From an uncultured Clostridia bacterium (lineage in GTDB: Bacteria > Bacillota > Clostridia > RUG12999): a DNA stretch of 64,000 nt. Location: positions 112,690 to 176,689 of the forward strand of contig CAMNSU010000001.1 of NCBI GenBank assembly GCA_946555455.1, read 5' to 3'. The position numbers and the translations under genes were made by a program. The notes beneath the pieces were generated by a model. That model had not been told where the DNA came from. It did no database searches and saw nothing but the letters and a program-made list of their open reading frames with translations. Positions 7,854-62,254 of the stretch are shown here, piece after piece; the first letter of the stretch is position 1, and each line of letters opens with the position of its first letter.

Positions 7854-7878
7854 ATAATCATATGACAACTGTCATATC

Positions 7879-42276: not shown

Positions 42277-42415
42277 GAAATTCTCTCCTTTTGTCTCGTT
42301 ATATTTTCCTATTGTAGCACAAAGTATTTTCCTTTTCAAGCATTGTTTATTTTTTGTCATTTTCTGTGTTTTCAAATGAAAAACCACATTTCTATGAAAT
42401 AGGTTTATAGCAGCA

Positions 42416-42447
42416 AAAACAGGCGGGCATGTTTACCCGCCTGCTGT
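42416..42447 (-). terminator. Terminator of the SLH operon
   Basis: CAGGCGGG-TAAACATG-CCCGCCTG followed by TTTTT on the minus strand. Confidence 0.8.
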
Positions 42448-45400: not shown

Positions 45401-46604
45401 AAAAGATATCAATGGTACGGTTCGACCAGTTGATTTCATTTTCCTTCCAGCCCAGTTCCTTGGATTCCCACAGCATAACGTCTTTGCTCACGCGTTCCTG
45501 CGGTGCGGCAGTGGGATTGTCGCTTTTCACCATTTTACCGTTTACCTTCAGCACCGCGCTGTCAATAGAATCTCCCGGTTTCAAATCGGAAAAATCAAAC
45601 AAAAGATAAGCGCGTTTGGTATACTCATCCGCTTCCGCCTGCGTGCCGATAGAACTATAGGATTCCTCCACGCGCAGCGTTTTTTCCGAACCATAGTTTT
45701 TCGTCCGGTTGCCGCCCGCCATAATGGTGGCGTCCGCAATGGGTCTGATGGTTCTGGTGTTGCCGTTGACCGTCAGTTCAATGCGCGGCCCTGTTTCGCC
45801 CGCTTCTCTGCTGTCGAACACAGCTTCATAGCCGTCTTTTTTCAGCGCAATGATGTTGAACGCTTTTTGCGTGGTGACAGCGCCGATTGCCGCTTCCACG
45901 TCTTTGCGCACATCTGCTTCAAAAACCTGTGTTTCCGCTGTCATGTTCCATTTTTCCACCGGTTCGCCATAGCCCCACAGTTTAATCAGGTTTTCAAAAG
46001 TTGCCTGTGCAACCAACCGTTTGCGTTTGTCGGAAACAGCGGCAAGACCGCGGCGGTGTGTTTTGAACGTATTGCGGTAGTATTCCAGAATTTCTTCCTT
46101 CGCCGCTTCATAGTCGCCGCGTTTGGCTGCCGCTTCCGTGGCTGCCAAATCAGAAGAATAGCTATAGTCAAAATAGGGTTGTTTCGTCCATGCGCTGCCG
46201 TCCCATACGCCGAAGAAATCTGCGTCCTGAATGACTTGCGGGTCTTGCATCAATTCGTCATATTGGTCGTATTGGTCAATGGTGGACTGAAAATATTCGT
46301 CCTGCGTCATTTCCTTCGTATCCGGCGCCACCAGCGAAGTCGCCTGAATTTGTTCCGCCACTTCCTGTGATTCCAATGTCATTTCTTCCTCCGATGCACC
46401 GTCTTCCTGCGGTAACACGCTGTTTTCCGTCTCCGGTTCCTGCGCAGCCGGCAGTGCCGCGTTTTCCAAAAGCTGCTGCATGGTCGTCTCCTGCTGCGCC
46501 TCCGGTGCGGGAGCAGTTTCCTGCTCCTGCGCACCGACAGCGCCCGCCGCGCTTACCATCATGCAACCGCTTAGCAATGCCGCTATCCATCTATGATTTT
46601 TCAT
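42465..46604 (-). CDS. SLH-anchored heparinase II/III-like (PL12-like) polysaccharide lyase with a DNRLRE/CBM96-like module
   Basis: Signal peptide; IADATI..NYGS..RAYLLFDFS; DDGSSIEVGLGY, LRSDW, HGQNDDLG, STRAHNTIEING, QNWHF; Gly-rich linker; three SLH (TTRAEF, VTREEMA, TLREQA). Confidence 0.8.
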   Translation of the reverse strand: MKNHRWIAALLSGCMMVSAAGAVGAQEQETAPAPEAQQETTMQQLLENAALPAAQEPETENSVLPQEDGASEEEMTLESQEVAEQIQATSLVAPDTKEMTQDEYFQSTIDQYDQYDELMQDPQVIQDADFFGVWDGSAWTKQPYFDYSYSSDLAATEAAAKRGDYEAAKEEILEYYRNTFKTHRRGLAAVSDKRKRLVAQATFENLIKLWGYGEPVEKWNMTAETQVFEADVRKDVEAAIGAVTTQKAFNIIALKKDGYEAVFDSREAGETGPRIELTVNGNTRTIRPIADATIMAGGNRTKNYGSEKTLRVEESYSSIGTQAEADEYTKRAYLLFDFSDLKPGDSIDSAVLKVNGKMVKSDNPTAAPQERVSKDVMLWESKELGWKENEINWSNRTIDIFSYDGEMAPHLTHMTSMSTTIPSWADNMNKWQYAPNIAKCYLYYTQTGRSGGEVYAYHAIRMLMNTIVRQKAAIGTIYNCDGCHNLGQRAKYYPEMIDMLLPSEYMTPEVFTAILKNVWMTNDYLVKQWNNSSEGNNFGSLQAEGLFNLTIPFMEFADAGKPATGLSDPNKPGSMQGGWLAAAKHRLGYKVMKDLFDDGSSIEVGLGYADLNLGTFLNSINNAEMVGMDGKELFSAAELEFMEKYALYLMNASTPTWGDWQQGHAYGHGSNYAGKWGTLNELTKNPYLMWATSGGAEGEKPEYTAIVYDIGQKAILRSDWGRMNANNTIAMQINADGGVKSHGQNDDLGLNFYAYGQHFLVDPLYHNYTPSLPMNLFLNSTRAHNTIEINGVSQKGGQGGSGSDPAGNPIVNLNGGQQGSMHPENREFNTMYNFLRAETVNYKNNSAVGGNFTNYRDILFLKNGFAIVTDYVEPDNSRENTYDQNWHFLPNAGLTLDPVTNTATTHFEGANLILAPVNQAHAFDKAQLTDGWYAPNAGTEVDAKYLTYEKKLSGATTFNTVLYPVKGGERKSVTTQNLTLDVPEETANAFQMTVLDQDTGSTENYTYYANRGDNVQRAAGTYTTDADLMLVEKKGAANNQAILRGGNNVVDTAAEKYLIKVQDGEIKDLGVQWQGNIVNVTAADGLKNGDGTWKNIAIYTDKNITQVTYTDENGTNVENIPFQQEGAYIYFGTPFLGDDTKLPEPGDGSQRPVNPDGGHGNGGGGSSNIGGGSIGGGSHGGGAGTPGAGGSIIPTPTSKLTDGMKAELQGHWAGQEIAQMVENGIVNGVSADSLGLSQTTTRAEFTALLVRAMGLPQTGYHGEFADVAANDWYAGVFAAAKEKGLVQGSGGNANPNAPVTREEMACMLVRAYELKTASAGAAGGDASFTDAADISDWARTAVAQAKELGLLNGMENGAFAPKENTLREQAIVAVYRLLK

Positions 46605-46617: not shown

Positions 46618-49600
46618 TTATCTGCCTATCTTATCGAGCACCATGCAAATCACTTTTGCACCTTGTTCTCTTGTTGCAGTGTCTGCCGGCAGGAAATTGC
46701 CGTTTTCACCGTTTAAAATGCCCAGCGCTGCCAACTGCATAACCGCTTCCTGTGCATATGCGCTGATTTGTGCGCTATCGGCAAAAGTGACGTCCGCCGT
46801 ACCGTTCAAAATCTGCGCTCCGCTTTTCTCCAGCGCGCGGCATATCATGGTCGCCATATCTTCTCTGCTGACATATTCTCCTACGCCGAATTCCGTTTCG
46901 CTGATACCGCTGACAATGCCTGCCTGTGCCGCTGCCGCGATATAGGGGCTGTACCATTCGCCCGCCGCTACGTCGGCAAAATCTGTATTTTGTGTACTGG
47001 TGTCCAGTTTGAGCGCTGTAACCAGCAATTTCACAAGCTGCTCCCGCGTCAAATGACCTTCGGGGTCAAACGCGCCGCCACTGCCATTTACAATGCCTTG
47101 CTGCGCCAACCGTTCTATATAGGGATAAGACCAACGCTGCATTTCCACATCATAGAACCGCGTCTCTTGCGGCTGTGGCTGCGGACGAACCGTGTTTTCC
47201 GGCTGAATCACCGGCACCTGCATTCCTGCACCGCCGCTGCCGCCGGAGACGGAACCGCCGCCACCTCCACCGCCGCCGGGGCTCTGACCGGCAGCCGGTT
47301 TCGTTCCTTTGACCGTGTGGTATACCGTGACCGTTTCTGATTTATCACCGCTTCGGAAGGTTGCCGTCAGCGTCACATTTTGGTCATCGCTCTGCCGCGT
47401 TACATGCCCCTGCGCGTCCAGCGCCGCCGCGTTGTCGGACGACCATTCTATTGTACTGCCGAATTTTGTCGCCGTAGGCAGTACGATATCCGTCGTTACT
47501 ATTTTCGGATTGGTGTAGGTAAACGCTTTCACATCTGCCTGCACGCGTTCCTCGTCCGTTGGCATGGAATACAGTTCTATTTCATATATCTTCACAGGCA
47601 TTTCGTCCTGCTGCGTCATGCTAAGACGTACATAGCGTGCGCCGGTCAATGGGAAGCGAATTTCCTGTCCGAACGCCAAAGTATTCCACTGCGTCGCTTT
47701 TGTATAGTTTACATTATCGTTTGACACTTCCAAAACAGCGTTTCCGATATTGCCTTCCGCGTAAAGCACAGCATGTGTGAGCAATTTCTCACTGCCCAAG
47801 TCCAGTGTCACCGCCGCATTTTTCGCCGCCACAGTCCACGCGGTTTCATAGTTTTTGTCCGTCACTGCAACAATGCTGCCTTCCAGCGCCGCGACATTCG
47901 CAGAAGGACGCGCGTCTGCCGCCATGTTTTCCAGCAGGTCTCCCTCTGCCAAAACCGTGAACCGGAATGTCTTTTCCGCAGACAGTTCGCCGTTTTGGAA
48001 TTTCGCCGTCAGCGTCACAGGATGGTTTCTGCCTGCCGGACGCGTCACTACGCCTCCTGCCGACAGCACCGCCGCATCGCTGGTCGTCCAAGTCACCGTC
48101 GTCCCGTTCGGCAACGGTGAGGACGGCAGATTCAAGCTCTCTGTCAGCTTATCCGGCTCCTGCGCTGTTAATGCTTCATAGGTCACAAGCGCAACATCTT
48201 CCGTGAATCCAATCCGCGCGTCTCCTGTCCACAGGACAGTGAAATCAAAGGTCTTGGAAAGAGACAGTCCCGTCTCATCAATTTTCGCCGTGAGCCGTAC
48301 TGTTTTTTCTGCATCCTCCGGTCTTGTTATCGTTCCGTCTGTTCCTATCACGTCCGGCATATCGGATTCCCAATGAATGGGTACGCCGCAGGGCAATGCC
48401 GACGGAAGCGTGAGGTTTCCAGTTATCATTTCCGGTACTTGCTGCGTGAGGTCTGCCGCGCTCAATGCGCTGAATTCTGCCTCAATCTGCGCCGCATAGT
48501 CCGCGTCATATTCGTAGACTTTCATGCCTTTGGTAACGATATACGCGTCTTTGTCGCCTTCTTTTCCTTGATAACTCACCTGTACACCGCCGATACCGCT
48601 GCCATAGGACGGTTTATATGTTTTCTGGGAAGCAAGCTTGCCACCGCTGACATGCTGGAATGCCCCTGTCGCCGTGTCATAATAGATACCAATGGTTTCC
48701 TCTTTGCCATGCGTGTGGTTAATCTTTACTTCACTATCAATCCAGTTTCGACCGCTGCCATTGTTCGCCGCCAGTCCCAGCGTATTGCTGGAGCGGAAAA
48801 TGAACAAAGCTCCTTCGCCATTTGTGCTGTTTAGCACAATAACACGTGCTTCGCCTTTTTTCATATCCGCTTGCAGCGTCATTTCCACATAGTATTTTTT
48901 GCCCGGTTTGATTTTATCTACAAAATTCAGCCGCATATCGGGGCGGTTGTTACTTGGCACTTCATTGTTTGTCAGCTGACCGAACCGTACGCCGCCACCC
49001 TGCGCTGTAGAAGAAGAAACGCCGTCTGTAATCTGCGTAATCGCATAGGTGGACGCGCCGCGCGGGTCTTCCACTTTCACGTTTTCCACCAGTTTCCAAA
49101 TTGCCTTTTCGTCCGGTAAAACCGTGAAGGTGAAATCGCGCGTTTCTGTCGCTGCCGCCGCGCCCGCTTTGGTAAACGCCGCTTGCAGCGTCACTTGCTG
49201 CGCTTCCGTCTCCGGACGTGTCACCTTTCCGTTTGCCGCAATTGCCGTTCCGCTTTTCACGCTCCATGCCACGGTGGTACCACCTTGCAAGGGGCTGACC
49301 GGCAGATTCAAGCTCCATTGCACATGCTCTGCGTCCGGATTCGCGCCCAACAAATAGGCCTCCGTCACGCTTGCAATATCTTGCTGGAACCACTCTTCCG
49401 CCGGATTGCCGGATTCTTTTTTAACCGTGAAGGTAAAGGTTTTCTCCGTAGTATACGTATCGCCCGGACTGGTGAACACCGCTTTTAGCTGCACCGTCTG
49501 GTCTGCGCCGTCCGCTGCCGGACGCGTCACTTTCCCTTGATTGTTTATCCATTCGCCGCCGCTGACAACACTCCATACGACTTTCGTCCCTTTCGGCAGC

Positions 49601-51987
49601 GGTGAGGCGATCAACGTCAAATCGGAAACAACGTTCTGCGCATCGGTGTTCGTGCCCAGCAGCGACTGCTCTGTCACGCCCGCCACTTCCGCTTGAAATT
49701 CCGCTTCCGTTAAATCGCTGACGACCTGTTCTTCATATTCGTAGACTTTCAACCCTTTTACAATGATATAGGCGTTTTCATCACCTTCATTCCCCTGATA
49801 GCTGACCTGTACGCCGGAAATACCGGTGCCATAGGACGGTTTATATGCTTTCTCGGCTGCAATCGTTCTGCCACTGACAAACTGAAATGTATTTTGTACC
49901 GTGTCATAATAAATACCAATGGTTTCTTCGCTGCCGTGCGTGTGACTGATGGGTACTTCGCTTTGTACCCAATTTCGACCGCTTCCGTTATTCGCCGCCA
50001 GATTCAGCGTGTTCGATTTATTGAAGATGAACAGTGCTCCTTCGCCATTTGTGCTGTTTAGTACAACAACACGTGTTTCGCCCGCTTTCATATCCGCCTG
50101 CACAGTCATTTCCACATAGTATTTCTTGCCTGATTTGATTTTATCTGCAAAATTCAGCCGCATATCGGGACGGTTGTTGTCCGGCACCTGACTATTCGCC
50201 AGCTGTCCGAACCGCACGCCGCCGCCCTGCGCTGTGGCAGAGGATACGCCTTCCGTAATCTGCGTAATCGCATAAGTGGACGCGCCGCGCGGGTCTTCCA
50301 CTTTCACGTTTTCCACCAGTTTCCATTCCGCTGTTTCTTCCGGCAGAACGGTGAAGGTGAAATCGCGCGTTTCCGCCGCTGTCGACGCACCAAATTTGGT
50401 AAATGCCGCTTGCAGCGTCACTTGCTGCGCCGCGCTCGGGCGCGTCACGGTTCCGTCCGCCGCAATTGCCGTTCCGCTTTTCACGCTCCATGCCACGGTG
50501 GTACCGTTCGGGAGCGGGCTAATCGGCAGGTTCAAATCCCATTTCACATGTGCCGCGTCCGCGTTCGCGCCTAACAGATAGGCTTCCGTCACGATTGCCA
50601 AATCCTGCCGAAATTGCTCTTCTATCAATGCCGCATCTAATTTTAGAACGGTAAAGGTAAATGTTTTTTCTGCCGTATACGTGCCGCCCGGAGAAGCAAA
50701 CGTTGCTTTTAGCTGCACTTCTTGGTCTGCGCTGTCCGCTGCCGGACGCGTCACTTTTCCTTTGTTATCTATCCATTCACCGCCGCTGACAACTGACCAA
50801 GTCAGCCGCGTCCAATTTGGCAGCGGCGAGGCGGTCAACGTCAAATCTTCTGTGATATGCTGCGCGTCCGGATTGTCTCCCAACAAAGACACCTCTGTCA
50901 CGCTATTCACGTCCGCTTGAAATTCCGCTTCGTCCTCCACTTCTTCAAACGGCGCGCCCGCCAGACTGTCATATACCTCGAATTCCCAGATACTGGGGCC
51001 TTTTTCGCCCACTTCCACAATGCGGTAGCGGACATAAGCTGCTTTCACGCGGTCAAAGCTGATGTCATAGGTACGCATACTGCTGGGACAACTCTGCTGA
51101 TATTCTTTTTCCTGTACCGGCAGCTCCTGTCCGTCCTGTTTGACCGCTTTCCAGTTTTGCCCGTCATCTGATACTTCTATGATAAACTTGGTGACGCGCC
51201 CTTGGAATTCCTTAATCGTGACTTTATCAAACGCCGTCCGTTCCTCAAACCGAATGCCTGCCCATACGCCGGCGACCGCTCCGATTTCCAGTCCCCAGTT
51301 GGACGACCAGCGGGATTCGCCGGAAGTGCCGCCGTCATTCAATTTTGCTGCCGAAAAGCGTGCTTCTGTGGTAGACTTTTCCGGATCGGAAATACCTGTT
51401 CCTTTTGCCACTGCCAAATTGGTGTCCGCTGTGATAATGGATACGCAGTATACTTCAAATTCCCAGATGCTCGCGCCGGCTTTTTCTCCCACATTCACAA
51501 TATAGAGCCGGACAGCTTTTGCTTCCACCGCGTCAAATGTCACGGTATTGGCGACGGAATGCGCCGAATTCACTGTTTCTTTTGCCTCTTTTGTCTGATT
51601 CGCAAGCGCTGCGCCGTCCTTTTGCACCACGTTCCAGTTGCCTTCTGCGTCCATATATTCCACTTTATATTCCGTAATTCTGGAATCATATTCATAAAAA
51701 ACAATTTTATCTATTTTTGTCGGTACATCAAATTCCACGCCGCACCACTGACCAATATTGTTTGCCGCAACACTCCAGTCAGTCGTCCAACGCATATTGT
51801 TTGCGCCGGAGGTGATTCCATCATTTAGTTTTTCTTTGCCGTATCCCGAATTGAAGTCGCTTTTGGTAATCGCCGTTGCTCCTAATGCCAAATTCTCGTT
51901 CGCCGCGCTTCCTGCCTGCGGAACCGCTACAAGTCCAAGCGTCAGCATAAACGTCAATAGCAGTGCCCCTAACCGTTTCCTGTTCAT
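46618..51987 (-). CDS. Giant non-catalytic surface protein: F5/8 (CBM32-like) domains, Ig-like repeats, a duplicated unknown beta-domain, C-terminal SLH
   Basis: Signal peptide MNRKRLG; ENLALG..IWEFEVY twice; repeated LPxGTxVxWxS..GxVTRP..VTLTA modules; third discoidin; SLH LTREQL, VSREDMA, ATREQG. Confidence 0.82.
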   Translation of the reverse strand: MNRKRLGALLLTFMLTLGLVAVPQAGSAANENLALGATAITKSDFNSGYGKEKLNDGITSGANNMRWTTDWSVAANNIGQWCGVEFDVPTKIDKIVFYEYDSRITEYKVEYMDAEGNWNVVQKDGAALANQTKEAKETVNSAHSVANTVTFDAVEAKAVRLYIVNVGEKAGASIWEFEVYCVSIITADTNLAVAKGTGISDPEKSTTEARFSAAKLNDGGTSGESRWSSNWGLEIGAVAGVWAGIRFEERTAFDKVTIKEFQGRVTKFIIEVSDDGQNWKAVKQDGQELPVQEKEYQQSCPSSMRTYDISFDRVKAAYVRYRIVEVGEKGPSIWEFEVYDSLAGAPFEEVEDEAEFQADVNSVTEVSLLGDNPDAQHITEDLTLTASPLPNWTRLTWSVVSGGEWIDNKGKVTRPAADSADQEVQLKATFASPGGTYTAEKTFTFTVLKLDAALIEEQFRQDLAIVTEAYLLGANADAAHVKWDLNLPISPLPNGTTVAWSVKSGTAIAADGTVTRPSAAQQVTLQAAFTKFGASTAAETRDFTFTVLPEETAEWKLVENVKVEDPRGASTYAITQITEGVSSATAQGGGVRFGQLANSQVPDNNRPDMRLNFADKIKSGKKYYVEMTVQADMKAGETRVVVLNSTNGEGALFIFNKSNTLNLAANNGSGRNWVQSEVPISHTHGSEETIGIYYDTVQNTFQFVSGRTIAAEKAYKPSYGTGISGVQVSYQGNEGDENAYIIVKGLKVYEYEEQVVSDLTEAEFQAEVAGVTEQSLLGTNTDAQNVVSDLTLIASPLPKGTKVVWSVVSGGEWINNQGKVTRPAADGADQTVQLKAVFTSPGDTYTTEKTFTFTVKKESGNPAEEWFQQDIASVTEAYLLGANPDAEHVQWSLNLPVSPLQGGTTVAWSVKSGTAIAANGKVTRPETEAQQVTLQAAFTKAGAAAATETRDFTFTVLPDEKAIWKLVENVKVEDPRGASTYAITQITDGVSSSTAQGGGVRFGQLTNNEVPSNNRPDMRLNFVDKIKPGKKYYVEMTLQADMKKGEARVIVLNSTNGEGALFIFRSSNTLGLAANNGSGRNWIDSEVKINHTHGKEETIGIYYDTATGAFQHVSGGKLASQKTYKPSYGSGIGGVQVSYQGKEGDKDAYIVTKGMKVYEYDADYAAQIEAEFSALSAADLTQQVPEMITGNLTLPSALPCGVPIHWESDMPDVIGTDGTITRPEDAEKTVRLTAKIDETGLSLSKTFDFTVLWTGDARIGFTEDVALVTYEALTAQEPDKLTESLNLPSSPLPNGTTVTWTTSDAAVLSAGGVVTRPAGRNHPVTLTAKFQNGELSAEKTFRFTVLAEGDLLENMAADARPSANVAALEGSIVAVTDKNYETAWTVAAKNAAVTLDLGSEKLLTHAVLYAEGNIGNAVLEVSNDNVNYTKATQWNTLAFGQEIRFPLTGARYVRLSMTQQDEMPVKIYEIELYSMPTDEERVQADVKAFTYTNPKIVTTDIVLPTATKFGSTIEWSSDNAAALDAQGHVTRQSDDQNVTLTATFRSGDKSETVTVYHTVKGTKPAAGQSPGGGGGGGGSVSGGSGGAGMQVPVIQPENTVRPQPQPQETRFYDVEMQRWSYPYIERLAQQGIVNGSGGAFDPEGHLTREQLVKLLVTALKLDTSTQNTDFADVAAGEWYSPYIAAAAQAGIVSGISETEFGVGEYVSREDMATMICRALEKSGAQILNGTADVTFADSAQISAYAQEAVMQLAALGILNGENGNFLPADTATREQGAKVICMVLDKIGR
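48507..50931 (-). repeat. Intragenic tandem duplication of ~1.22 kb (about 408 aa)
   Basis: AAATTCCGCTTC at 50920 and 49696; CATATTCGTAGACTTTC at 49734 and 48507; near-identical peptide blocks. Confidence 0.92.
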
Positions 51988-52010: not shown

Positions 52011-54674
52011 TCAGCGGACAATGACGCAAGCTTTCACGTCGTCATTCGGCATGATGATAAACAGCCGGTCTGCGCCGCTGCCGTCAGAACCTACCGGAAT
52101 CGCTTCCCGCAGCGCCGCCGGACGGATTTCCTTCGTTGCTTCTTCATAGAGGAAGGTTGGCGGAGTATTACGCTGCGCAATGCCAATCGCTTCACTGCTG
52201 CCGTCCAAATCAATGGTCGCTTTTATCACCAATATGTTTTTCATCACGTCAATTTCGTCAAAATCAAGACTCTGTAAATATCCGCTGATTTGTTCGTTAT
52301 CCGTTCCCTGATACCGGTAGAAAGTGCCGACGCCTTCGCCAAAGGAATAAATCTTTCTCACATTTTCAATTTTGTCCTGACCGTTTTTCACAAAATAAAT
52401 CAAGTCGCCTTTTTTCAAATCGGTGATGGCGCGGTTTTTGTCAATGATGTTGACCGTTTCATAGGTTTTTTCGCCGCTTTCTTCCACAATGGTCACTTTA
52501 TATTTTGTTTCCATGCTTTCGTCCGCATATTTGCGCAAATCTTTCACCATACCCAGTTTTGCCTTGTTGATGTCAACGTTGGACGCTTGGTTTGCATCCA
52601 TGGCTTCCGTCACCACCAGCAATTTCACTTTTTTGGTTATCGGGTCATATTCATAGCCCTGCGCATTAAATCGCCGTGAGCTGTCCGTGTTGTCGATACG
52701 CACCTGCACCATGTAATCCTCATCATTGTTCACCGTTTCCGGCAGGCAGATTACTTTCGTGTTTGCGTCAATGGCGAAACTCTGAATATTGGTGATACCG
52801 CCGAACACTTTATCGCGCACGTCATATTTGATTTTCTGTCCTATCTCGCCGCCGCGCAGCTCAGCCGATTCAATGGAACGGACTTTACCGTCCGCGCCCA
52901 AGGTATATTTCACTGCCAGTCCGCGGGTGGGGTCAATTTGCTGTGCCAAATTGCTTGCGCCAATGCTCCGCCCGTTAAACGAAACTTTGTCCGCCACGTC
53001 CAAGATTTCCACTTTTTCGTTTTCACACACCAAAACTTTGATTTCGTTTTTGTCGTCTTTATTTTGTTCGTTCTTTTCAATGTCTTCCTGAATCAGTTTT
53101 CCGGTTACCATTTTAATTTGCGTGTTTCCGAATCCGCCTTGCTGTCCAATCTGCGCAATGTAGCCATAGAGCATGGAAGAGGAAAGTTCCTTGGTCTGCG
53201 CCACTTCGCCGCGCCAATCCAGATATGCTGTGACGGAATCGCCGACTTTGACATCTGCTATCACCGCGTCGTCGGCTTCATAGAACGTCCCGCCAATCAC
53301 CATACCGTCCTCTGTGATTTCATCCACGGTTCCTTCCACCGTTTCGCGGCACACCACCAAGCTATACAGCGTTTTATATTCATCAACGGTGACGCTGATG
53401 ATGTCGTCCTTTTGAATATCTTTCACTTCCAGCGTTTTACCGTCTTTGTCTTTGATGTGATATTTCACGTCTTTGTTTTCTTTATCTACATTGATAAGAC
53501 GGCTGCCGTCCAATTCACTGCCCGGCATGAGATAAATCAAGTTTTCGCGCACTTCTTCTACCTGCACGTTTTGGTATTCGTCAATGAAAATCACGTCCGC
53601 CGCTTCGTCTCCGGAATTGTCAATCAAGGTGATGGAACCTTTTTCAAATTGCAGCGCGTTTTCCGTATAGATTTTAATGATCATGCCGTTTTTCACAATC
53701 ACCGGCTGCAGGGCAATGTCAAACCGTTCTTCCCGTTCATTTTCGCCATAATATTTTATCTGAGACATTGTGGTGCTTTTGATGTCATCCTCCCGTAGCG
53801 TGACAATGTGGTTGTTGCGCGTCGGTTTCACGCTCACCAGCGTATAGCGGTCGTCTTCGCCGCGCACGGCATAGAAATCCACTTCCTGTCCCAGCAGCGC
53901 CGCCGCATTTGTCCCGCCTACGCGGTAGATGATGCCGTCAATCATCACTTCGTTGTCTTTCATGTTTTGCACCGGCACGTCCAGCCAAGTATCCGCATTG
54001 GCGGATACGATACCTTTTGCTTTATAGGTTGTTTCATCACTGTTTTCTTTCATGTGGCGTCCGCGAATGGTTTCCCCTTTCGCCACTTCGTAAATCATCT
54101 GTCCGTCCTGTACAGACTGCACCATCAAATCCATATCCAGCGCATTATACAGCAGTTCCACCAAGTCGCCGCGGGTAAAACCGTTTTCCTGTGAAATATT
54201 TTTCAGCAGTCCGTTTTCCGCCGCAACCAGCATGTGCCCTGTCGGGTATCCGCCGCGTCCGTTTGCCACTGCGCCATATCCCAGCGACACCACTACGGTT
54301 TTCACTGCTTCTTCCAAGCTGATAGCATTGTCCGGTCCGAAGGTGCCGTCGCCATAGCCGTTCATCAAATCCATCTGCACGCCAAACGATACTGCGCGTG
54401 CATACCATGCGTCTGCGGGAACGTCTGTGAAATGTTTCTGCACATCCGCAATCTTCGCCGCTTCGTCATATTGCAAAAACTTCAGCAGCGCTTCCATAAA
54501 TTCCGCGCGCGTCAGCGGCGCATCCAATTTATAATCTCCGTTTTCATCTCCCTGAATAATGCCCAGCGAGGTGACGTCAAACAATGCTTTTTCTGTCGCT
54601 GCCTGTGCGAATCCTCCTACGCCGAGCAACATGCAAGCGGTCAGCGTCATCACAATCCATTTGATATGTTTCAT
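52011..54674 (-). CDS. S-layer protein paralog with N-terminal SLH domains
   Basis: Signal peptide; LTRAEF, FTDVPADAWY, FTRGDL; colinear similarity to 7879..10905 over its full length. Confidence 0.82.
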   Translation of the reverse strand: MKHIKWIVMTLTACMLLGVGGFAQAATEKALFDVTSLGIIQGDENGDYKLDAPLTRAEFMEALLKFLQYDEAAKIADVQKHFTDVPADAWYARAVSFGVQMDLMNGYGDGTFGPDNAISLEEAVKTVVVSLGYGAVANGRGGYPTGHMLVAAENGLLKNISQENGFTRGDLVELLYNALDMDLMVQSVQDGQMIYEVAKGETIRGRHMKENSDETTYKAKGIVSANADTWLDVPVQNMKDNEVMIDGIIYRVGGTNAAALLGQEVDFYAVRGEDDRYTLVSVKPTRNNHIVTLREDDIKSTTMSQIKYYGENEREERFDIALQPVIVKNGMIIKIYTENALQFEKGSITLIDNSGDEAADVIFIDEYQNVQVEEVRENLIYLMPGSELDGSRLINVDKENKDVKYHIKDKDGKTLEVKDIQKDDIISVTVDEYKTLYSLVVCRETVEGTVDEITEDGMVIGGTFYEADDAVIADVKVGDSVTAYLDWRGEVAQTKELSSSMLYGYIAQIGQQGGFGNTQIKMVTGKLIQEDIEKNEQNKDDKNEIKVLVCENEKVEILDVADKVSFNGRSIGASNLAQQIDPTRGLAVKYTLGADGKVRSIESAELRGGEIGQKIKYDVRDKVFGGITNIQSFAIDANTKVICLPETVNNDEDYMVQVRIDNTDSSRRFNAQGYEYDPITKKVKLLVVTEAMDANQASNVDINKAKLGMVKDLRKYADESMETKYKVTIVEESGEKTYETVNIIDKNRAITDLKKGDLIYFVKNGQDKIENVRKIYSFGEGVGTFYRYQGTDNEQISGYLQSLDFDEIDVMKNILVIKATIDLDGSSEAIGIAQRNTPPTFLYEEATKEIRPAALREAIPVGSDGSGADRLFIIMPNDDVKACVIVR

Positions 54675-54704: not shown

Positions 54705-57700
54705 TTACAGTATTGCCATCAAGCGGTAGAGTACCACCGCCGCCTGTTCCCGCAGCAATCCTGTCTGCGGCAAAAACTCTCCTGTTTCATACCCTTGTAT
54801 GAGTCCTAATTTCACCGCCTGCGCAACCGTTTCACGCGCCCAGCCGGAAATTGTCTCTTCGTCTGTAAACGCTGCACTTTCCTCTGTCTCCGGCAGTGTT
54901 TTTCCACGGTAGGCATAGGCTTTCACCACAATTTTTGCCATTTCTTCCCGCGTGATGAAGTCGTTGGGTCGGAGCAGCCCATCGCTGCCTTCCATCAGTC
55001 CCGCGTCCGCCGCCGCCAAAACAACGCCGGCATACCATGCGTCCGCCGGAACATCACCGAAGGTCGGACGATAGTCCGCCGCACTCAGTTGCAGCACCCG
55101 CGAAAGCATCGCGGCAAATTCGGCGCGCGTCACGCCGTCCGCCAGCCGCAGGGAAATACCGTCACCTTGTAAAATACCGCGGTCTACCATTTCTCCCAGT
55201 TCCGCCTGCGCCCAATGTCCGCTTAGTTCCGCTTTCATGTCCGGCGTGGGCAGCGGCACCGGTTTCACGTTGGTATCGCTAACGATAGGCACCTGCATAC
55301 CGATTCCACCTGTTCCGCCGGAGGAACCTCCGCCGCGGTTTCCACCGCCGCCGCTGCTGCCGCCCGTTCCGCCCGGTGTTCCGGTGCTGCCGCCGCCTGT
55401 TCCTTCAACGCCAACCGTATAGGCTCTCATGTCACTTGCCTGTTGATACTGTGCATCAACGCGCAAATTGATGACTTTTGTCTGTGCGCCGTATGTTGGT
55501 TTCAATATATATACATCGCCCTGCCGTTCCAGTTTCATTAAATCTGTGTTGCTGCTCGTCCAGGTGAGTTCTGAACCAAAGATACCGATTGCCGGCAACA
55601 CGTCCATGTCTATGAATGCCTGCATATACATTCCAATCACCGCTAAGTCTCCCTCCAGCACCTGTGCTGCTGTCGGTGCATAGCTTCCTGTGATTTCGGC
55701 AAACCCTGTGCTGCCTTTTTCAAATGCCTCTATCTTGATTTTAAGCTGTGTTGTCTCGCGCAAAGCGCAGGGCACCGTCAATTCTTCTCCGATTTCCGTA
55801 CCTTGTGCAATCTGTTCATAATCGCCGAGCTTGTTTTTCGCTTCTATGCTGAATTTCGTAATTTTTCCGGTGCTTTTCGGCGCTTCAAACAGCGTCAAAT
55901 GCGATACCACCGTTTCCTGCGGAAAATCAATGGTGATTTCATAGGGTTTTGTGCTTCTGGTAAGGTACGCGGTATCGATATCCTCATCCAGCAGGTTTTC
56001 TATTCCGCCGCCGGATACGCTTTTTCCGGTTGTTTCCACCGCCGCGCCCGTCAATAAGTTACCGCCGCCAAACATAATGCGGAAGGATTTTTCAAACACT
56101 TCACTGCCAAACGCCGCTGTCACGGTTAATGTTGTAATGCCGGACTGCGTCGTGTCTATCGCGCCCGTTTCGGGATCTACCCCCGCTTCGTTGCTGCTCT
56201 GCCACTGTGCCGGCGCGGCAAGCAAGGTCTTTGGCAGTGCAAGGTCTTTGGAGACGCACATGGGTTTTTCATCGGACAGTTTCGTAAAATCAAACTGTTC
56301 GTTTAACAATCCCACTGCAAGTTTGGGACTCATACGCACCTGCGCACTGTGGACGCTCAAACTGCCGCTATCTCCCGCCGCCCATATTTTGTCCAGCGCG
56401 GAAATGGTATTCATGCCTTTGACGTTATGTACTGCGGTTTTCCAGCCTGTTCCCTCATCTACCAGCGCATCCATTGTACCTGTCACGCGGTTGATTTCAA
56501 ACCGGAATTTCACATGCGCTCCCTGCGCAGGATAATTGCCTTCTTTGCGCCACAGCCGCATGGGCGAACCATATGCTATACTATAGGTATTTCCTGTGAA
56601 CTGAATCTGCGCAAACGGCGCATTTTCTTGTCCGAGGGATACCACCATGTTCTGCGCATTTTGTGCGGATACGTCCAGCTCTGCCGCCAAAGGCGCGTTC
56701 AAATCAAATCCGCTCTGTTGTTTCAAATCCGCTGTCCAAGGCTCTGTCTCTACCGTGACAGGCTCCTGCAACACTTCTAAAACCGGAATGTCATCTGCTG
56801 CCGCTTTGACCGTCACGGTGAAAGAAATTTCCACCGGCGGCACCTCTGCCATGCCCTGAATCGCCGCCCGCGCTGTAATCGTCACCGGCGTATCCTCCGC
56901 CTGCCGCGTCACTTCGCCGGTCTGCACATTTATCACATCAGGTTTGTCGCTTTCCCACGTCACATCTGCCGTCAAGTTTCCCGCTGTCGCGCTATCCGGC
57001 AGCGGCATATTCAAATTTCCGGTGATGGCATCGGTCGGTTGGTCTGTGAGCGCGGAGGCATTCACAAAATCCGCAAACTGATAATATTGCAAATAATCTC
57101 CCGCCGCGTTTGTACAATAGATTTCCAGTTCCCAAATGGTGGGGTGGTCGGTATATGTATAGACCTCCAGTTTGACATAGCGCACACAAGCCACAGGAAA
57201 CTCCAGCGTTGTGTTTTTATTGCCTCCCGAAAGCGTTCCGCTTTTCAGTTCATTCCAGTTTTCGCCGTCCACGGAACCCATGATTTTATAATCCTGAATA
57301 CGTGCCGACATTTCATATAGTTTCATTTGGTTAATGGGTTTCACCGCGCCAAGGTCAACGCGAACCCAACGGCAATCCAAATCCGGCGCGCCGTCCGAGG
57401 AAAAGGACGCCCAGCGGGTATCCATTTTGCCGTCCACTATTTTGGATACGTCATAGGTTGCGGAGTGTTCGCTGCTCGCTGTCACCGGACGTTTCAGCGC
57501 CAAATTATCCGTTGTTGTCATGGCTGCTTCCGTTCCGCCCGATACGGTGATTTCGTAAAAAGTGGGTTCCGCACTCCATTCCAATATATTGAACCGCACA
57601 TATCTCGCATCTACTTTTGAAAACGTAATCTCCTTATTCGTGCCCATGCTGTCGCCTTCCGCCGCAGTCGTCCAAACCAAATTGTCCGTCGATACTTCTA

Positions 57701-57995
57701 CGGAATATTTCAGCACGCGCGACTGATATTGTTGGAAGGTCATCTTGTTAATGGCTCGCGTTTGTTCCAAGTCCACTTGAATCCAATATTCCGTCTCGCC
57801 TGCTTTGGACGCCCAACGGGTGGAGGCATCGCCGTCAAACGCTGCGCCCGCACTCCATTTTGCATCGTTCCCATAGATGCTGTTTGTCGTCGCCGGTTTT
57901 CCCAGCGCATAGTTTTCCTCCGCCGCTGCCGCCGGCAGGAAAAACATTCCTGACAAAAGCGCTATGCATAAAATGAATCCAATCCCTTTTTTCAT
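54705..57995 (-). CDS. Non-catalytic surface protein: F5/8 (CBM32-like) domains, Ig-like modules, C-terminal SLH
   Basis: NYALGKP..AFDGDASTRWAS..WIQVDL; NLALKRPVTASS..DGKMDTRWAS; Gly-rich linker; VTRAEF, ITREEMA, LLREQA. Confidence 0.82.
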   Translation of the reverse strand: MKKGIGFILCIALLSGMFFLPAAAAEENYALGKPATTNSIYGNDAKWSAGAAFDGDASTRWASKAGETEYWIQVDLEQTRAINKMTFQQYQSRVLKYSVEVSTDNLVWTTAAEGDSMGTNKEITFSKVDARYVRFNILEWSAEPTFYEITVSGGTEAAMTTTDNLALKRPVTASSEHSATYDVSKIVDGKMDTRWASFSSDGAPDLDCRWVRVDLGAVKPINQMKLYEMSARIQDYKIMGSVDGENWNELKSGTLSGGNKNTTLEFPVACVRYVKLEVYTYTDHPTIWELEIYCTNAAGDYLQYYQFADFVNASALTDQPTDAITGNLNMPLPDSATAGNLTADVTWESDKPDVINVQTGEVTRQAEDTPVTITARAAIQGMAEVPPVEISFTVTVKAAADDIPVLEVLQEPVTVETEPWTADLKQQSGFDLNAPLAAELDVSAQNAQNMVVSLGQENAPFAQIQFTGNTYSIAYGSPMRLWRKEGNYPAQGAHVKFRFEINRVTGTMDALVDEGTGWKTAVHNVKGMNTISALDKIWAAGDSGSLSVHSAQVRMSPKLAVGLLNEQFDFTKLSDEKPMCVSKDLALPKTLLAAPAQWQSSNEAGVDPETGAIDTTQSGITTLTVTAAFGSEVFEKSFRIMFGGGNLLTGAAVETTGKSVSGGGIENLLDEDIDTAYLTRSTKPYEITIDFPQETVVSHLTLFEAPKSTGKITKFSIEAKNKLGDYEQIAQGTEIGEELTVPCALRETTQLKIKIEAFEKGSTGFAEITGSYAPTAAQVLEGDLAVIGMYMQAFIDMDVLPAIGIFGSELTWTSSNTDLMKLERQGDVYILKPTYGAQTKVINLRVDAQYQQASDMRAYTVGVEGTGGGSTGTPGGTGGSSGGGGNRGGGSSGGTGGIGMQVPIVSDTNVKPVPLPTPDMKAELSGHWAQAELGEMVDRGILQGDGISLRLADGVTRAEFAAMLSRVLQLSAADYRPTFGDVPADAWYAGVVLAAADAGLMEGSDGLLRPNDFITREEMAKIVVKAYAYRGKTLPETEESAAFTDEETISGWARETVAQAVKLGLIQGYETGEFLPQTGLLREQAAVVLYRLMAIL

Positions 57996-58035: not shown

Positions 58036-59634
58036 CTATTTCGCTTTATCTAACATATTCTGATAGATTTCTATATACCTTGCAAGCCCCAATTCATTCA
58101 GCCGTTCCACATAGGCGTTCCAATCTGTTTCCAGCGATTTTTCTCCGCTGACAAACGCCGCCATGGAGCGTTTCACTTCACTGTCGATTTGCAGTCTGAG
58201 CTGCGTAAACTCATTATATTGATCTGGTTCAAAAAAGGAATCCCGAACGCAATGGTCTATGCCATATGGTTCATAAAGTTCCTTGGTGACTTGATACATC
58301 GTCTGTTCCGTTTGTTCTCCCGTCGGTTCCACGATAATACCCAACCGGATTTTTTCATCCATATAATAAACGCCGATATTCATCCAGCATTTGTTTTGCA
58401 TCACGCCAAACGGCTGCAGCCGCGCCCAAATTGCCTGACCGCCGTCCAGCCCTATTTCGCCTTCTTTGGCATCTCGCCAGCCCACGCCTTCAAATCCGTT
58501 TTGTACCGTGAGCGTTCCTTCTTTGGAATAAAACCAGTCCAGCCACCGTATGGCGATTTCCGGCGTTTTACATGCTTTCGTGATGTTAGCAGACCATTCC
58601 ACCCGTCCATTGTTATACATTGGCGTCTGCCGCAAACCCGATGGTCCCATGAGCGGCGGAATTGCCGCATAGTCCTGATAACGGTTGCTGCCGCCCTCCA
58701 CGTCCGTGAAAATGCCGTACCACAAGGCAGGTACTGCGCCGACCGTTGCCGTTTCGCCCTCTTCTACCATGTTTTTCAGTCGTTTCCTGTCCATAATCGG
58801 GCTGTCTCTGTGCAGCAGCCCCTCGCTGTATAAACGGTTCAAATACCGCAGTCCCTCACGATAAGCAGGCTGATTTGCCGTAAAGATTGCGGTTCCGTTT
58901 TCCTGCATGACTTTGGAACCGTCATAATATAGAAACGCATTCATCAAAAATTCTTCATAACCGTTGGGTCCGACTTCACTCGTTGCCGCCATGGGAATTT
59001 CATCTTTCACGCCGTTTCCGTTGGGGTCGCCGTCCCGAAACGCAACCAACATCCGGTAGAATTCTTCCGTGGTCTGCGGCACGCTTAATCCCAGCTGTTC
59101 CAGCCACTGCCGGTTGACCCACATTTTGCTCGGATAGCGCGTATGATATACGTTATTGACTCTGGGCAATCCAAAAATTTCTCCGTCCGGCGTGGTAATA
59201 CCTTTGCGGATATCCTCTTGTTCCTGCAAAATTTGTTTCAGGTAAACGGAATGTTCTTCAATCAAGTCTTTCAAGTCCAGCAAAACGCCCTGTTTCCCGT
59301 AGACCGTTTGTTCCAATTTGCTGATACCGCTGTCCATCACGATATCAGGATAATCTCCCGACGCAAACATCAGGTTAATCGCCTGCGCTTGGTTGCCGCC
59401 CGCAATCTGCCAATCAATATGTACGCCCGTTTGCTGTTCATACCAAAGTGTGAATTCATTGGTGGACAAATCCTCTATATATTGCGGTTTTGGCAAATAC
59501 ACACTCATTGTCACCGGCTCTTTTGTGACAGGCGCCGGCGGCTGTCCGCCCGTTTCCTGTCCCGCTCCGGTGCAGGCAGTCAGCAGCCCTGCCATTGCCA
59601 CAGCAGCGGCAAGCCATTTTCCTCTTCTTTTCAT
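58036..59634 (-). CDS. Extracellular carbohydrate solute-binding lipoprotein
   Basis: Start MKRRG, lipobox LTAC, LMFASGDYPDI, WVNRQWLEQLGLSVPQTTEE, DPNGNGVKDEIP. Confidence 0.88.
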   Translation of the reverse strand: MKRRGKWLAAAVAMAGLLTACTGAGQETGGQPPAPVTKEPVTMSVYLPKPQYIEDLSTNEFTLWYEQQTGVHIDWQIAGGNQAQAINLMFASGDYPDIVMDSGISKLEQTVYGKQGVLLDLKDLIEEHSVYLKQILQEQEDIRKGITTPDGEIFGLPRVNNVYHTRYPSKMWVNRQWLEQLGLSVPQTTEEFYRMLVAFRDGDPNGNGVKDEIPMAATSEVGPNGYEEFLMNAFLYYDGSKVMQENGTAIFTANQPAYREGLRYLNRLYSEGLLHRDSPIMDRKRLKNMVEEGETATVGAVPALWYGIFTDVEGGSNRYQDYAAIPPLMGPSGLRQTPMYNNGRVEWSANITKACKTPEIAIRWLDWFYSKEGTLTVQNGFEGVGWRDAKEGEIGLDGGQAIWARLQPFGVMQNKCWMNIGVYYMDEKIRLGIIVEPTGEQTEQTMYQVTKELYEPYGIDHCVRDSFFEPDQYNEFTQLRLQIDSEVKRSMAAFVSGEKSLETDWNAYVERLNELGLARYIEIYQNMLDKAK

Positions 59635-59674
59635 GGTGTTCCCCTCCCGCTTTTCCGTTCTCTTCTTGTCTTTT

Positions 59675-59733
59675 ATTTTACTACATTCCCATACACCATA
59701 CAAGAAACAACTCTTTCCAAAACCGTACAAATC
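59675..59733 (-). promoter_or_regulatory. Promoter of the SBP-SLH operon with candidate AraC operator
   Basis: TTGTAT-17-TAAAAT; TTGTTTCTTG overlapping -35. Confidence 0.55.
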
Positions 59734-59830
59734 TTCATTTTTTCCGATATGCAAAAAAAGACCTGTTATGCTCAAAATCCGCACTCATAGGCATTTTAAG
59801 CACTTCAGGTCTTTTATATGGCAAATCATT

Positions 59831-62128
59831 TTAGGCTTTTGGCGCGCCATGATATCCGCTTGGGCTAACGCCCATTTTTTTCTTAAACGCACGCCGGAAT
59901 GTCACGTCGTTGGCATATCCCACCATGGCGGAAATTTCTCCGATTTTGTGCGCGCCCTCCTCAATCAACCGGCACGCCTGTTTAATGCGGAGCCCTTCCA
60001 AATAGGTGGAAAAGTTTTCTCCTGTTTCTTCCTTGAAACAGGTGGAAAGATATTTTTCGTTCAAATTAAATTCAACGGAAAGCTCCGTGAGCGACAGTTT
60101 GCTGTCATTATAGTGCTCGGCAATGTATTGCCGTACCCGCTCCATCACCACGGCGCTTTTGCTTTTCTTTTGCTGCGCCGCAGCGCTGCACAACTGTTTC
60201 AGAATTCCACCCATTTGTTCAAACACATCTGTGATAGACCGACCGTCGTCCGGCGCCGGAATATCAATTGCCGCTTCCGCACTGCCGCCAAGGTGTAGCG
60301 CGTCCTGCACTTTGATAATGGTGGACGTGATTTCCTGCGTGAGCTGTTCCACCATATCCGCCGACAGCGTTCTGCTTAGGAAATTTTCATGATAAATCTC
60401 GTCCAGTGTCTGCACCACTTCTTCATAGTTGCCGACAATGGCATAGTTATACAGCCGCGTTTCCAGTGCGAGCGGATAATAGAACACATTGCCCTCCTGC
60501 GGCAAATCGTCGTACCACAAAACGCTTTTCCTATGACCAATCGCATTGTATTCCACAACTTCGCGCGCCTGCCGGAATCCGTCTGCAATTTCAGTGAGCC
60601 GCTGTGCCGGTCGTCCCGCGCCGAATATCATGGGGATATCATAGGGATAACTCAGCGCAGTTTCAATATGCGATACCACCGCCGCCACCTGTGTTTTCGC
60701 CGCCTCTCCCGTTTCGTCAAGGGACAGCAGCACCGCCACGCCACGCGCGCCCGCGTCACAGATATAACAATAGTTTTCAATAATACTGTATAAATTGTCT
60801 TTCACAAATTCTTTGCCGCTGCGCCCGCCAATCTGCATACGGTATTCCTTGCCCAATCGAATCAGCAAAACGACCTGACATGCGCCGCCCAGCGTCATGT
60901 TGTTCTTTTCCAGCGCTGCGCGGGCTGCCGGTTCTTCTTTATATTCTCCATGCAAAAGTCCGTCAATCACTTTGGACTCAATATATCCCCGCTGCTCCTC
61001 AATTTGACTGCGGAAGGATTCGTTGGCGGAAATCAAGTCGGATACGCCCTCCTGCAACAAGGAAAACTCTGTTTGTTTCAAATTTTTCAGCGAAAATTTC
61101 TCTGTCAGCTTTTTTCCAATAGACCCCGCCAGCCGGTGGAACTCTTTGCTGCGTTTATAGGTGATATAGATACATACCGCCATACCTGCCAGCACAGTCA
61201 ATGTATAAATCAACAGCAGCAGTGCGTTAATGAACCGCACTTTTTCCAGCACCACTGCTTTGGGCACCAGCAATACCACCTGCCAGCCATTGCCCACGCT
61301 GGTCTGTTTCATCAGATACATGCTTTTACCGTCCACTTTGTATTCCGATTGCAAGGATTCTCCCTCTAGCTGCTGCAAATGTTCCAAAATAAAATCCCGA
61401 TGTTTTTGGTCGGAGGAAAGCAGCAATTCGTTTTTGTTGTCCAAAATATACAGCGCGCCCTGATTGCCGCCCAGCAGACTGTCGAACAAACTCATCAGTT
61501 CGCGGCTGTCAATAATAACATTCACCTGTCCGCGCATCACGCCGGAAGCGAGCAGCGGCGCCGATTGCGTATAGGTAATGGCATTGCAATTTTTGTCATT
61601 CACCAACATTTGCTGCGCCGGCTGGTATCCGCGCCGCCAATCGCCGCTTCGCAGCGCTGCCGCCCATGTTTCTTCCGTCACGCGGTCAATCACCAGTCCA
61701 TTGCCATAATAGGTATCTGCGCCGCGGTAAATTCCTGCTTTGTCAATCACAACGTCCAGCGGCTGATGGTATAGATAAATATTTTTCACCCAATTTTCAT
61801 CAAACGAATAGGAATTCAGCAGCCGCTGAATGTCCATCAGCTTTGTCACATTACCCGCGTCCCGATAGAAAAAATCCGCCATTTCCGCGTTCATCAACAT
61901 GCTGTCCACAACTTCTTCAATTTGGCTGAGCTGGTTGTCAATCAACTCCATGTTGTTTTGCAGCACAATTTCATAGGACCCCAGCGTTTCCTCCTTATAT
62001 TGGCGGACAATTGCCTGATTTGCTAAAAATACCGTGATAATCGGAATTAACATCACACCAAGATAGGGAATGATAAAACGGACAAACACTTGCAGAAAAT
62101 CCCGCGGAACACTTGTTTTTTGACGCAT
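59831..62128 (-). CDS. Membrane-spanning AraC-family regulator (YesS-like)
   Basis: Two TM helices (FIIPYLGVMLIPII; LLLLIYTLTVLAGMAVCIYI); C-terminal YLSTCFKEETG..LRIKQAC..VGYANDVTFRRAFKK; promoter TTGACA-17-TATAAT at 62203-62175. Confidence 0.88.
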   Translation of the reverse strand: MRQKTSVPRDFLQVFVRFIIPYLGVMLIPIITVFLANQAIVRQYKEETLGSYEIVLQNNMELIDNQLSQIEEVVDSMLMNAEMADFFYRDAGNVTKLMDIQRLLNSYSFDENWVKNIYLYHQPLDVVIDKAGIYRGADTYYGNGLVIDRVTEETWAAALRSGDWRRGYQPAQQMLVNDKNCNAITYTQSAPLLASGVMRGQVNVIIDSRELMSLFDSLLGGNQGALYILDNKNELLLSSDQKHRDFILEHLQQLEGESLQSEYKVDGKSMYLMKQTSVGNGWQVVLLVPKAVVLEKVRFINALLLLIYTLTVLAGMAVCIYITYKRSKEFHRLAGSIGKKLTEKFSLKNLKQTEFSLLQEGVSDLISANESFRSQIEEQRGYIESKVIDGLLHGEYKEEPAARAALEKNNMTLGGACQVVLLIRLGKEYRMQIGGRSGKEFVKDNLYSIIENYCYICDAGARGVAVLLSLDETGEAAKTQVAAVVSHIETALSYPYDIPMIFGAGRPAQRLTEIADGFRQAREVVEYNAIGHRKSVLWYDDLPQEGNVFYYPLALETRLYNYAIVGNYEEVVQTLDEIYHENFLSRTLSADMVEQLTQEITSTIIKVQDALHLGGSAEAAIDIPAPDDGRSITDVFEQMGGILKQLCSAAAQQKKSKSAVVMERVRQYIAEHYNDSKLSLTELSVEFNLNEKYLSTCFKEETGENFSTYLEGLRIKQACRLIEEGAHKIGEISAMVGYANDVTFRRAFKKKMGVSPSGYHGAPKA

Positions 62129-62254
62129 TTTCTCTCCCCTCCCTGTTTTGGCATTTCTTTTTTCATCTATCTCTATTATACTGTCTTGTACTTTTCCTGT
62201 CAAACATTTTGTAAAAATAACTGTATTTACCTTTGTCAAGTGATGGTTTATCTG

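Follow-up and report, generated by a model that had tools for sequence, protein, structure and literature searches.

A full-length S-layer-family paralog within a conserved SLH-anchored glycan cassette of uncultured Clostridia

The cellulosome anchoring scaffoldins that bear S-layer homology (SLH) domains are non-catalytic, SLH-anchored proteins that organise enzymes at the cell surface. Surface-layer (S-layer) paralogs (PMC9802277) and SLH-anchored systems of carbohydrate-active enzymes (CAZymes; PMC4765114) are both already known: in Bacillus anthracis, Sap and EA1 are expressed under different conditions, in a switch that follows growth phase, and the S-layer proteins of this species determine where an SLH enzyme is deposited (PMC9802277, PMC8056022). 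How enzymes of 1000–2300 residues are fitted into the lattice-covered surface of monoderm gut bacteria is poorly understood, and a literature search, with most subscription journals outside its reach, returned no S-layer-protein paralog described as a conserved part of glycan loci. Here we describe P0001, a protein encoded in a 64,000-nucleotide stretch from an uncultured Clostridia bacterium (CAMNSU010000001.1, positions 112,690 to 176,689 of the forward strand; hereafter the window, in whose own numbering all coordinates are given). P0001 is a true full-length paralog of a second protein of the window, P0002, the probable housekeeping S-layer protein, beyond their common SLH anchor, and it is a constant member of a cassette whose other products are giant SLH-anchored proteins: glycan binders of CBM32/aBig_2 type and a lyase of CBM96-heparinase II/III-like type.

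P0001 is encoded by an intact open reading frame (ORF) on the minus strand (52011..54674, stop codon included), whose translation of 887 residues comprises a predicted signal peptide (residues 1–25; 54600..54674 (-)), read as a hydrophobic leader with AQA before the likely cleavage site, an SLH trimer (residues 26–186; 54117..54599 (-); Pfam SLH, E = 3.5e-16), and an all-beta body (residues 187–887; 52014..54116 (-)) identified by homology to the P0002 body and by DSSP on an AlphaFold2 (AF2) model. In that model, built from an alignment of 21 sequences (mean predicted local distance difference test, pLDDT, 80.0; predicted template modelling score, pTM, 0.47), SLH helices run to about residue 180 and are followed by the all-beta body. 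All three SLH motifs are intact, TRAE (55–58), SLEE (119–122) and TRGD (167–170), and in the same alignment T55, R56 and E58 are invariant and A57 and R168 nearly so. This set mirrors the TRAE/TVEE/TRAQ pattern of Paenibacillus alvei SpaA, whose arginines touch the pyruvylated wall polymer, and polymer binding by SLH needs both a TRAE-type arginine and a GIIxG-type glycine (PMC6081394). Structurally, the SLH part of the AF2 models of P0001 and P0002 matches SpaA-SLH and the SLH of Sap (Foldseek, TM 0.7–0.8 normalised to target), with P0001 against SpaA-SLH at TM 0.71–0.76 on the same normalisation. With its signal peptide and three conserved SLH motifs, P0001 is thus predicted to carry the anchor of an SLH-anchored S-layer protein. 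Its SLH region is nearest to that of P0002 (38% identity, E = 2e-35), those of the operon neighbours being less close.

The relationship to P0002 (1008 residues counted from the ATG, 7879..10905 (-)) extends well past the anchor. BLASTP aligned residues 1–523 of P0001 with residues 1–601 of P0002 (25% identity over 620 columns, E = 1e-36), and when the SLH regions were removed (P0001 from residue 187, P0002 from residue 198) a match remained between P0001 338–523 and P0002 409–601 (E = 9.7e-9). Comparison of profiles built from subfamily alignments (A1, P0001-type, 21 sequences; A2, P0002-type, 25 sequences) joined the two over their whole length, from 3–883 to 4–997, with a probability of 100, E = 2.1e-98 and 820 aligned columns. 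Trimmed profiles (hhalign) kept the match for the body only (E = 1.4e-46, 631 columns), for its middle part (E = 4.1e-35), for the C-terminal 362 versus 405 residues (E = 1.1e-18) and for the final 188 versus 219 residues (E = 2.8e-12). The first-pass annotation of this DNA had proposed a full-length, colinear paralog of the S-layer protein on the strength of nine short motif pairs; all nine fall on each other in the BLASTP or profile alignments, the VGGTNAAALLGQEVDFY pair in the profile alignment only, and the proposal holds from end to end, with similarity outside the SLH region that is significant down to the last 188 residues. The AF2 models of the two proteins likewise share a layout of SLH helices and then an all-beta body, so that P0001 keeps the architecture of P0002: signal peptide, N-terminal SLH trimer for the pyruvylated secondary cell-wall polymer, and a beta-rich body of about 700 residues.

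Beyond the SLH anchor, the family to which these proteins belong is unnamed in Pfam and NCBIfam. Pfam returned only SLH for P0001, with no catalytic or known binding domain, NCBIfam gave no match to it, an ESM Atlas search with its body gave no score of 0.9 or above and no named family, and neither the P0001 nor the P0002 body contains significant internal repeats. Foldseek matches of the bodies of both AF2 models in the Protein Data Bank (PDB), among them DDB1 and bS1, were rejected as noise (TM < 0.12). Searched against 1.84 billion cluster representatives, the body alone (residues 187–887) matched 2180 of them at E<=1e-3, of which 1016 reach 1e-10 and 161 reach 1e-30, and the best 150 of these matches are mostly proteins of 860–920 residues in which the match begins near residue 190. 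No much longer fused form of the body was found, in a search that we rate as weak evidence. Some relatives do carry additional domains: in P0052, whose cluster numbers 45 sequences, a CBM_4_9 module (residues 27–156) precedes the SLH region, and in others the C-terminus bears CHB_HEX_C_1, cadherin-like or Flg_new domains.

Relatives in their genomic context were obtained from one scan of species-representative genomes with peptide patterns drawn from P0001 and six relatives (a 7-sequence alignment), which returned 75 loci. Fifteen copies were of the P0001 type (L001, L002, L003+L005, L004+L006 and L007 to L017, some split over two contigs), a type to which P0001 itself belongs by its length of about 860–920 residues, its best score on the P0001-type profile, the lack of an M[KR]NLKKVLA start, and its SLH glycan neighbours. 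The closest (L001, 97% identity) comes from a metagenome-assembled genome (MAG) labelled 'Clostridia bacterium', and the other carriers are MAGs labelled Clostridia or Oscillospiraceae. At identities of 28–97%, every one of the 15 copies directly adjoins aBig_2 and/or F5/8C genes or CBM96-heparinase II/III genes, mostly with C-terminal SLH domains, and a CBM96-heparinase-like gene lies at most two genes downstream in 9 of them, the contigs of the other six ending first. Placement of these paralogs relative to glycan loci is therefore not random, as the first-pass annotation had anticipated. Three MAGs hold two cassettes each, with P0001-type proteins that are about 36% identical and the same neighbours in both. 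Loci with longer flanks add AraC regulators, solute-binding proteins, ATP-binding cassette (ABC) permeases, PL8, GH88, GH3 and a GDSL esterase, gene contents that point to a uronic-acid-containing polysaccharide as a candidate target of the cassette.

More distant members of the family occur in both kinds of setting. Six lie in housekeeping contexts (L018, L019, L020, L022, L028, L059; L022 also adjoins a SASA esterase), seven lie in glycan loci (L024, L025, L031, L035, L042, L056, L070), where they adjoin SLH-anchored Pectate_lyase_2, GH5, heparinase-like and GH123-like enzymes, and the label of L034 is ambiguous. Tandem pairs of family members were seen at L018 (10001-16306), L019 (1-6310) and L056 (9783-15853), the L018 and L019 pairs right after pyrG.

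Evolutionarily, a rapid maximum-likelihood analysis of 28 rows of the family, from which fragments and one row matching only in SLH were left out, placed the 13 P0001-type rows in one clade (SH-aLRT 100), and six housekeeping-context rows, P0002 among them, grouped weakly (support 83). One MAG has its two cassettes in different P0001-type subclades, which argues that the P0001-type duplication is old. Trees of the lyase-like and P0001-type proteins from the same eight loci have their terminal groups in common. The approximately unbiased test did not reject a tree that joins the 19 glycan-context rows in one clade (p 0.23), so recruitment into glycan loci may have occurred in one event or several. 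From these sequence comparisons, P0001 appears to be a member of an old, dedicated branch of the S-layer-protein family.

Within the window, P0001 is the fourth gene of a minus-strand series that is read in the order AraC-type regulator, solute-binding protein, 1096-residue giant, P0001, 1789-residue giant, lyase-like gene and terminator. The regulator (802 residues, 59831..62239 (-)) has HTH_18 at its C-terminus (Pfam) and is followed by a solute-binding protein with SBP_bac_1 (582 residues, 58036..59784 (-); Pfam). The upstream neighbour of P0001 (1096 residues, 54705..57995 (-)) has two F5/8C domains of CBM32 type, aBig_2 and C-terminal SLH, and the downstream neighbour (1789 residues, 46618..51987 (-)) has three F5/8C domains, seven aBig_2 and C-terminal SLH; the domains were assigned by Pfam, and the F5/8C domains match solved CBM32 modules (phmmer, PDB). 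For the downstream neighbour, listed as an ORF of 1803 residues, the ATG at 51987 with its ribosome-binding site is a likelier start than the TTG at 52029. The last protein (1379 residues, 42465..46604 (-)) joins a CBM96 to the N and C domains of a heparinase II/III-like protein and ends in SLH (Pfam), with H742, Y755 and other positions invariant in an eight-sequence alignment; we annotate it as a putative uronate-polysaccharide lyase. CBM96 was founded on an alginate-specific module (PMC9971899). An intrinsic terminator after this gene (42415..42445 (-)) was read from the sequence as the hairpin CAGGCGGG..CCCGCCTG followed by TTTTTG, and a terminator scan also lists the hairpin on the plus strand.

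P0001 is separated by 30 nucleotides from the preceding gene and by 23 from the ATG of the next, each with its own ribosome-binding site, and a sequence scan found no promoter-like site in either flanking gap and no minus-strand terminator-like site nearby; the promoter-like matches near P0001 are weak (9/12), lie inside coding sequences and occur at the frequency expected from shuffling. The tight spacing, the lack of a promoter-like site in the gaps and the terminator after the lyase-like gene together support co-transcription of P0001 with the SLH-anchored giants behind the AraC-type regulator and the solute-binding protein. The description of P0001 as embedded in a carbohydrate operon is thus upheld, its neighbours being glycan-binding and lyase-like. 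Of the components expected in a Gram-positive polysaccharide utilisation locus with SLH-anchored enzymes, an AraC regulator, a solute-binding protein, a lyase-like protein and CBM32 proteins are encoded here; Pfam detected no ABC permease genes in the locus, and they are present in relatives L014-L016. Codon use in P0001 resembles that of bulk genes (GC content at third codon positions, GC3, 0.575; r 0.94 with bulk genes), and its expression signals, judged by proxy, appear ordinary and not lattice-scale.

Compared with the same locus in L001, P0001 is the best conserved protein (97.1%), seven others standing at 96.3, 94.4, 93.1, 92.1, ~90 and 88.6%. The aBig_2/F5/8C giant varies in repeat number between the two, with 1789 residues and seven aBig_2 in the window (46618-51987 (-)) and 1396 residues and five aBig_2 in L001 (13169-17359); the part that they have in common is about 90% identical.

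P0002 is the other half of the comparison. It is a probable housekeeping S-layer protein (ORF, Pfam SLH, AF2 model with pLDDT 83.2 and pTM 0.62), and a sequence scan found a promoter with 12/12 consensus upstream of it (TTGACA, 18 nucleotides, TGgTATAAT with an extended -10; 10992..11021 (-)) and a terminator directly after it (7831..7846 (-)). A Shine-Dalgarno sequence, AAGGAGG, lies 8 nucleotides before the ATG. The gene follows immediately on pyrG, an arrangement also seen in relatives L018 and L019; further relatives are placed among sporulation and isoprenoid genes. Its N-terminus, M[KR]NLKKVLA, is invariant in the P0002 subfamily and shared by relatives in housekeeping contexts; 43 P0002-type proteins have this start, and all 174 of the strong P0001-type proteins fetched (>250 bits on the P0001-type profile) lack it. 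These features, namely promoter, Shine-Dalgarno sequence, own terminator, pyrG-adjacent position and conserved N-terminus, make it plausible that P0002 is the housekeeping, highly expressed ('major') S-layer protein of this organism. The best non-self relatives found are 87% and 86% identical, and one relative carries the automatic name 'Surface layer protein precursor'; sequence, Foldseek and NCBIfam searches returned no solved or named characterised relative of the P0002 body.

The codon bias of P0002 is extreme (GC3 0.367 versus 0.56–0.60 in bulk genes, with GTG, GCG and ACG almost unused) and goes in the same direction as that of rplT (0.40) and rpmI (0.43), and the codon correlation with a small ribosomal/infC set is 0.75 for P0002, lower than the 0.83 of P0001. 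The gene lies in a low-GC stretch (2001-10000; 0.385–0.43 GC versus ~0.49 for the whole window) in which its neighbours, an AraC regulator (GC3 0.413) and a PAS-GGDEF protein (0.346), are also low in GC3, so that a low-GC island, variable or acquired, would explain the bias just as well as expression would.

Immediately downstream of P0002 is another cluster of glycan type (2-7107 (-)), with a 791-residue AraC regulator, GNAT, PAS-GGDEF, a solute-binding protein and the N-terminal domain of a PL8 lyase that is cut by the window edge; P0002 is thus likewise a neighbour of glycan genes, even though it has a promoter and a terminator to itself. Elsewhere in the window, a tetrahydrofolate (THF) riboswitch (13724-13830 (+); 88.6 bits versus a gathering score of 36) precedes an ORF of 213 residues (13985-14626 (+)). 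After the operon terminator, a GH43-like gene seems to have its own promoter: in the region 42276-42387 (-), the ORF from the listed GTG start overlaps a promoter-like site (TTGAAA, 17 nucleotides, TGcTACAAT), and the likelier start is the ATG at 42276, with the ribosome-binding site AAAGGAGAG. Downstream of it is a 135-residue ORF with a lipoprotein-like start (LFAGC; 40794-41201 (-)), and the 880-bp gap between the DUF255 and GH43-like genes contains a 12/12 consensus promoter (40509-40537 (+)) with only short ORFs of 30–85 residues downstream on the plus strand. The operon is flanked on this side by DUF2264 and by a DUF255/thioredoxin-like protein with a weak N-acylglucosamine-2-epimerase-like match (36444-40357 (-)), and on the other by a GH29-type alpha-L-fucosidase (62367-63998 (+)) that is syntenic in L001 too.

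Functionally, we posit, tentatively and at somewhat short of even confidence, that P0001 could be a dedicated structural partner of the SLH-anchored glycan machinery and not an enzyme. The operon would be switched on via the adjacent AraC-type regulator and solute-binding protein; P0001, which has no promoter or terminator of its own and uses bulk codons, would be expected to be made in amounts similar to those of the enzymes and not in bulk, and would then be secreted and attached to the wall polymer that anchors them too. There, its S-layer-like body could build, by itself or linked to the main lattice, a local layer or platform that would let the C-terminally anchored giants be inserted, spaced and kept exposed at the surface. 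Because B. anthracis S-layer proteins govern the deposition of SLH proteins (PMC8056022, PMC9802277), a structural role for P0001 is reasonable, and its coupling to particular partner families, which stay the same across a divergence of 28–36% identity, suggests a specific partnership over a general lattice modifier and leans against the generic 'minor lattice subunit' of the first-pass annotation.

Several points weigh on the other side of this proposal. Sequence searches and Foldseek searches of the PDB gave no solved structural relative of the P0001 body, any known S-layer assembly domain included, and the term 'S-layer-like' consequently leans on homology to P0002, itself uncharacterised. 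Self-assembly of P0001, its co-assembly with P0002 and its contact with neighbours are our proposals, just as entry into the lattice, a change of pore size and docking of the very large enzymes are proposals of the first-pass annotation; association with the enzymes has synteny as its support, and induction of the operon by substrate is suggested only by the presence of the regulator and the solute-binding protein among its genes. The scan patterns came from P0001-type sequences, which biased the sample towards that type, and the context labels of the loci were assigned after the Pfam tables had been seen. Finally, the lyase-like and P0001-type trees disagree in their deep branches or leave these unresolved.

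Chief among the alternatives is that P0001 binds glycans at the surface: it would be the Gram-positive equivalent of SusE/F-type binders, with a body that captures polysaccharide and no longer forms a lattice. We regard this as a serious possibility, though an unlikely one: P0001 does sit in a glycan locus between proteins rich in carbohydrate-binding modules (CBMs), its family relative P0052 carries a CBM_4_9 fused N-terminal to the SLH region, binding to xylan or cellulose has been reported for a Lactobacillus brevis S-layer protein (PMC9026416), and the positions conserved specifically in the P0001 type include Y617 and F624, with C550 and C643 in the closer set. Yet Pfam and NCBIfam detect no known CBM in P0001, the neighbours already bring five CBM32-type (F5/8C) domains and a CBM96, and conservation with P0002 spans the whole body and not one domain.

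Full-length paralogy with P0002 would also fit a more sweeping role, that of an alternative whole-cell S-layer that replaces P0002 under induction in the manner of the Sap/EA1 exchange in B. anthracis, for mutually exclusive paralogous S-layers have precedent (PMC9802277) and several S-layer genes per genome have been reported (PMC4902306, PMC9277125). We consider such a replacement improbable, given the bulk codons of P0001 and its lack of a promoter or terminator of its own, and because the three MAGs with two P0001-type cassettes tie each to its own enzyme set, a pattern more in keeping with a partner specific to each cassette than with a replacement over the whole surface. Slightly less probable again is a role as an export, anchoring or protection factor for the SLH giants, in which P0001 would hold wall-polymer sites or shield the giants from proteases with no ordered array; the same synteny speaks for this as for a structural partner, as does the strong conservation of P0001 relative to its neighbours, but nothing points to it specifically, and it would not need a full S-layer-like body. 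That P0001 merely hitch-hikes in the operon, with no functional link, is very hard to credit, for although SLH proteins are numerous (77 in Paenibacillus sp. JDR-2; PMC4765114), 15 of 15 copies keep the same kinds of neighbour at 28–97% identity, the P0001-type rows form one clade with support of 100, and the gene is intact and the best conserved of its locus.

The conserved S-layer-family gene in these enzyme cassettes is a concrete candidate for a missing structural link between the lattice and very large surface enzymes, and P0001-type genes could be used to flag surface-bound glycan systems in the genomes of uncultured, Oscillospiraceae-like Clostridia of animal and human guts. A bolder and doubtful extension is that the S-layer in a broad group of gut Clostridia is a programmable mosaic, in which each SLH-anchored glycan cassette brings its own S-layer-family subunit and this subunit forms substrate-induced, enzyme-bearing patches in, or instead of, the housekeeping lattice. 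Were this true, these monoderm bacteria would have a lattice-based equivalent of the outer-membrane Sus-like complexes, with dedicated subunits in at least 160 sequence clusters.

Set against described systems, the locus has partial likenesses to several. The Sap/EA1 pair of B. anthracis is likewise a case of one genome that encodes two full-length paralogs, each with an SLH trimer at its N-terminus (PMC9802277, PMC8056022), but the resemblance of P0001 and P0002 to Sap is confined to the SLH part, by sequence or predicted fold; lattice formation has been shown for Sap, whereas P0001 and P0002 are known here from sequence alone; and the gene for P0001 is part of a glycan operon and is coupled to particular enzyme families, whereas the Sap/EA1 switch follows growth phase. 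The BSLs of Bacillus and the CWPs of Clostridioides difficile are, similarly, minor wall-anchored proteins that use the anchor of the S-layer protein (PMC8056022); they have nothing but the anchor in common with it and bear enzymatic or adhesive domains, whereas P0001 shares its whole body with P0002 and has no such domain in Pfam or NCBIfam, and by its sequence P0001 does not belong with such S-layer-associated proteins (SLAP/BSL), which are defined by anchor-only sharing and a separate domain. Lb1325 of Lactobacillus brevis offers an S-layer protein that is highly transcribed on arabinoxylan and binds plant polysaccharide, yet it is of a different anchoring type and family, and the available text of that study reports no operon link to enzymes (PMC9026416). 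Unlike cellulosome anchoring scaffoldins, which pair cohesin with dockerins, P0001 has no cohesin and its partner enzymes have their own SLH anchors and no dockerin, Pfam detecting neither domain in P0001 or its operon neighbours, so that P0001 is not expected to work as such a scaffoldin. In gene content the locus fits the SLH-CAZyme paradigm of Paenibacillus sp. JDR-2, with its regulator, solute-binding protein and very large, CBM-bearing, SLH-anchored surface enzymes (PMC4765114); the window locus differs from it in having no ABC permease genes, which relatives L014-L016 do have, and in including a paralog of the S-layer protein, a component that the available part of the JDR-2 account does not describe (PMC4765114).

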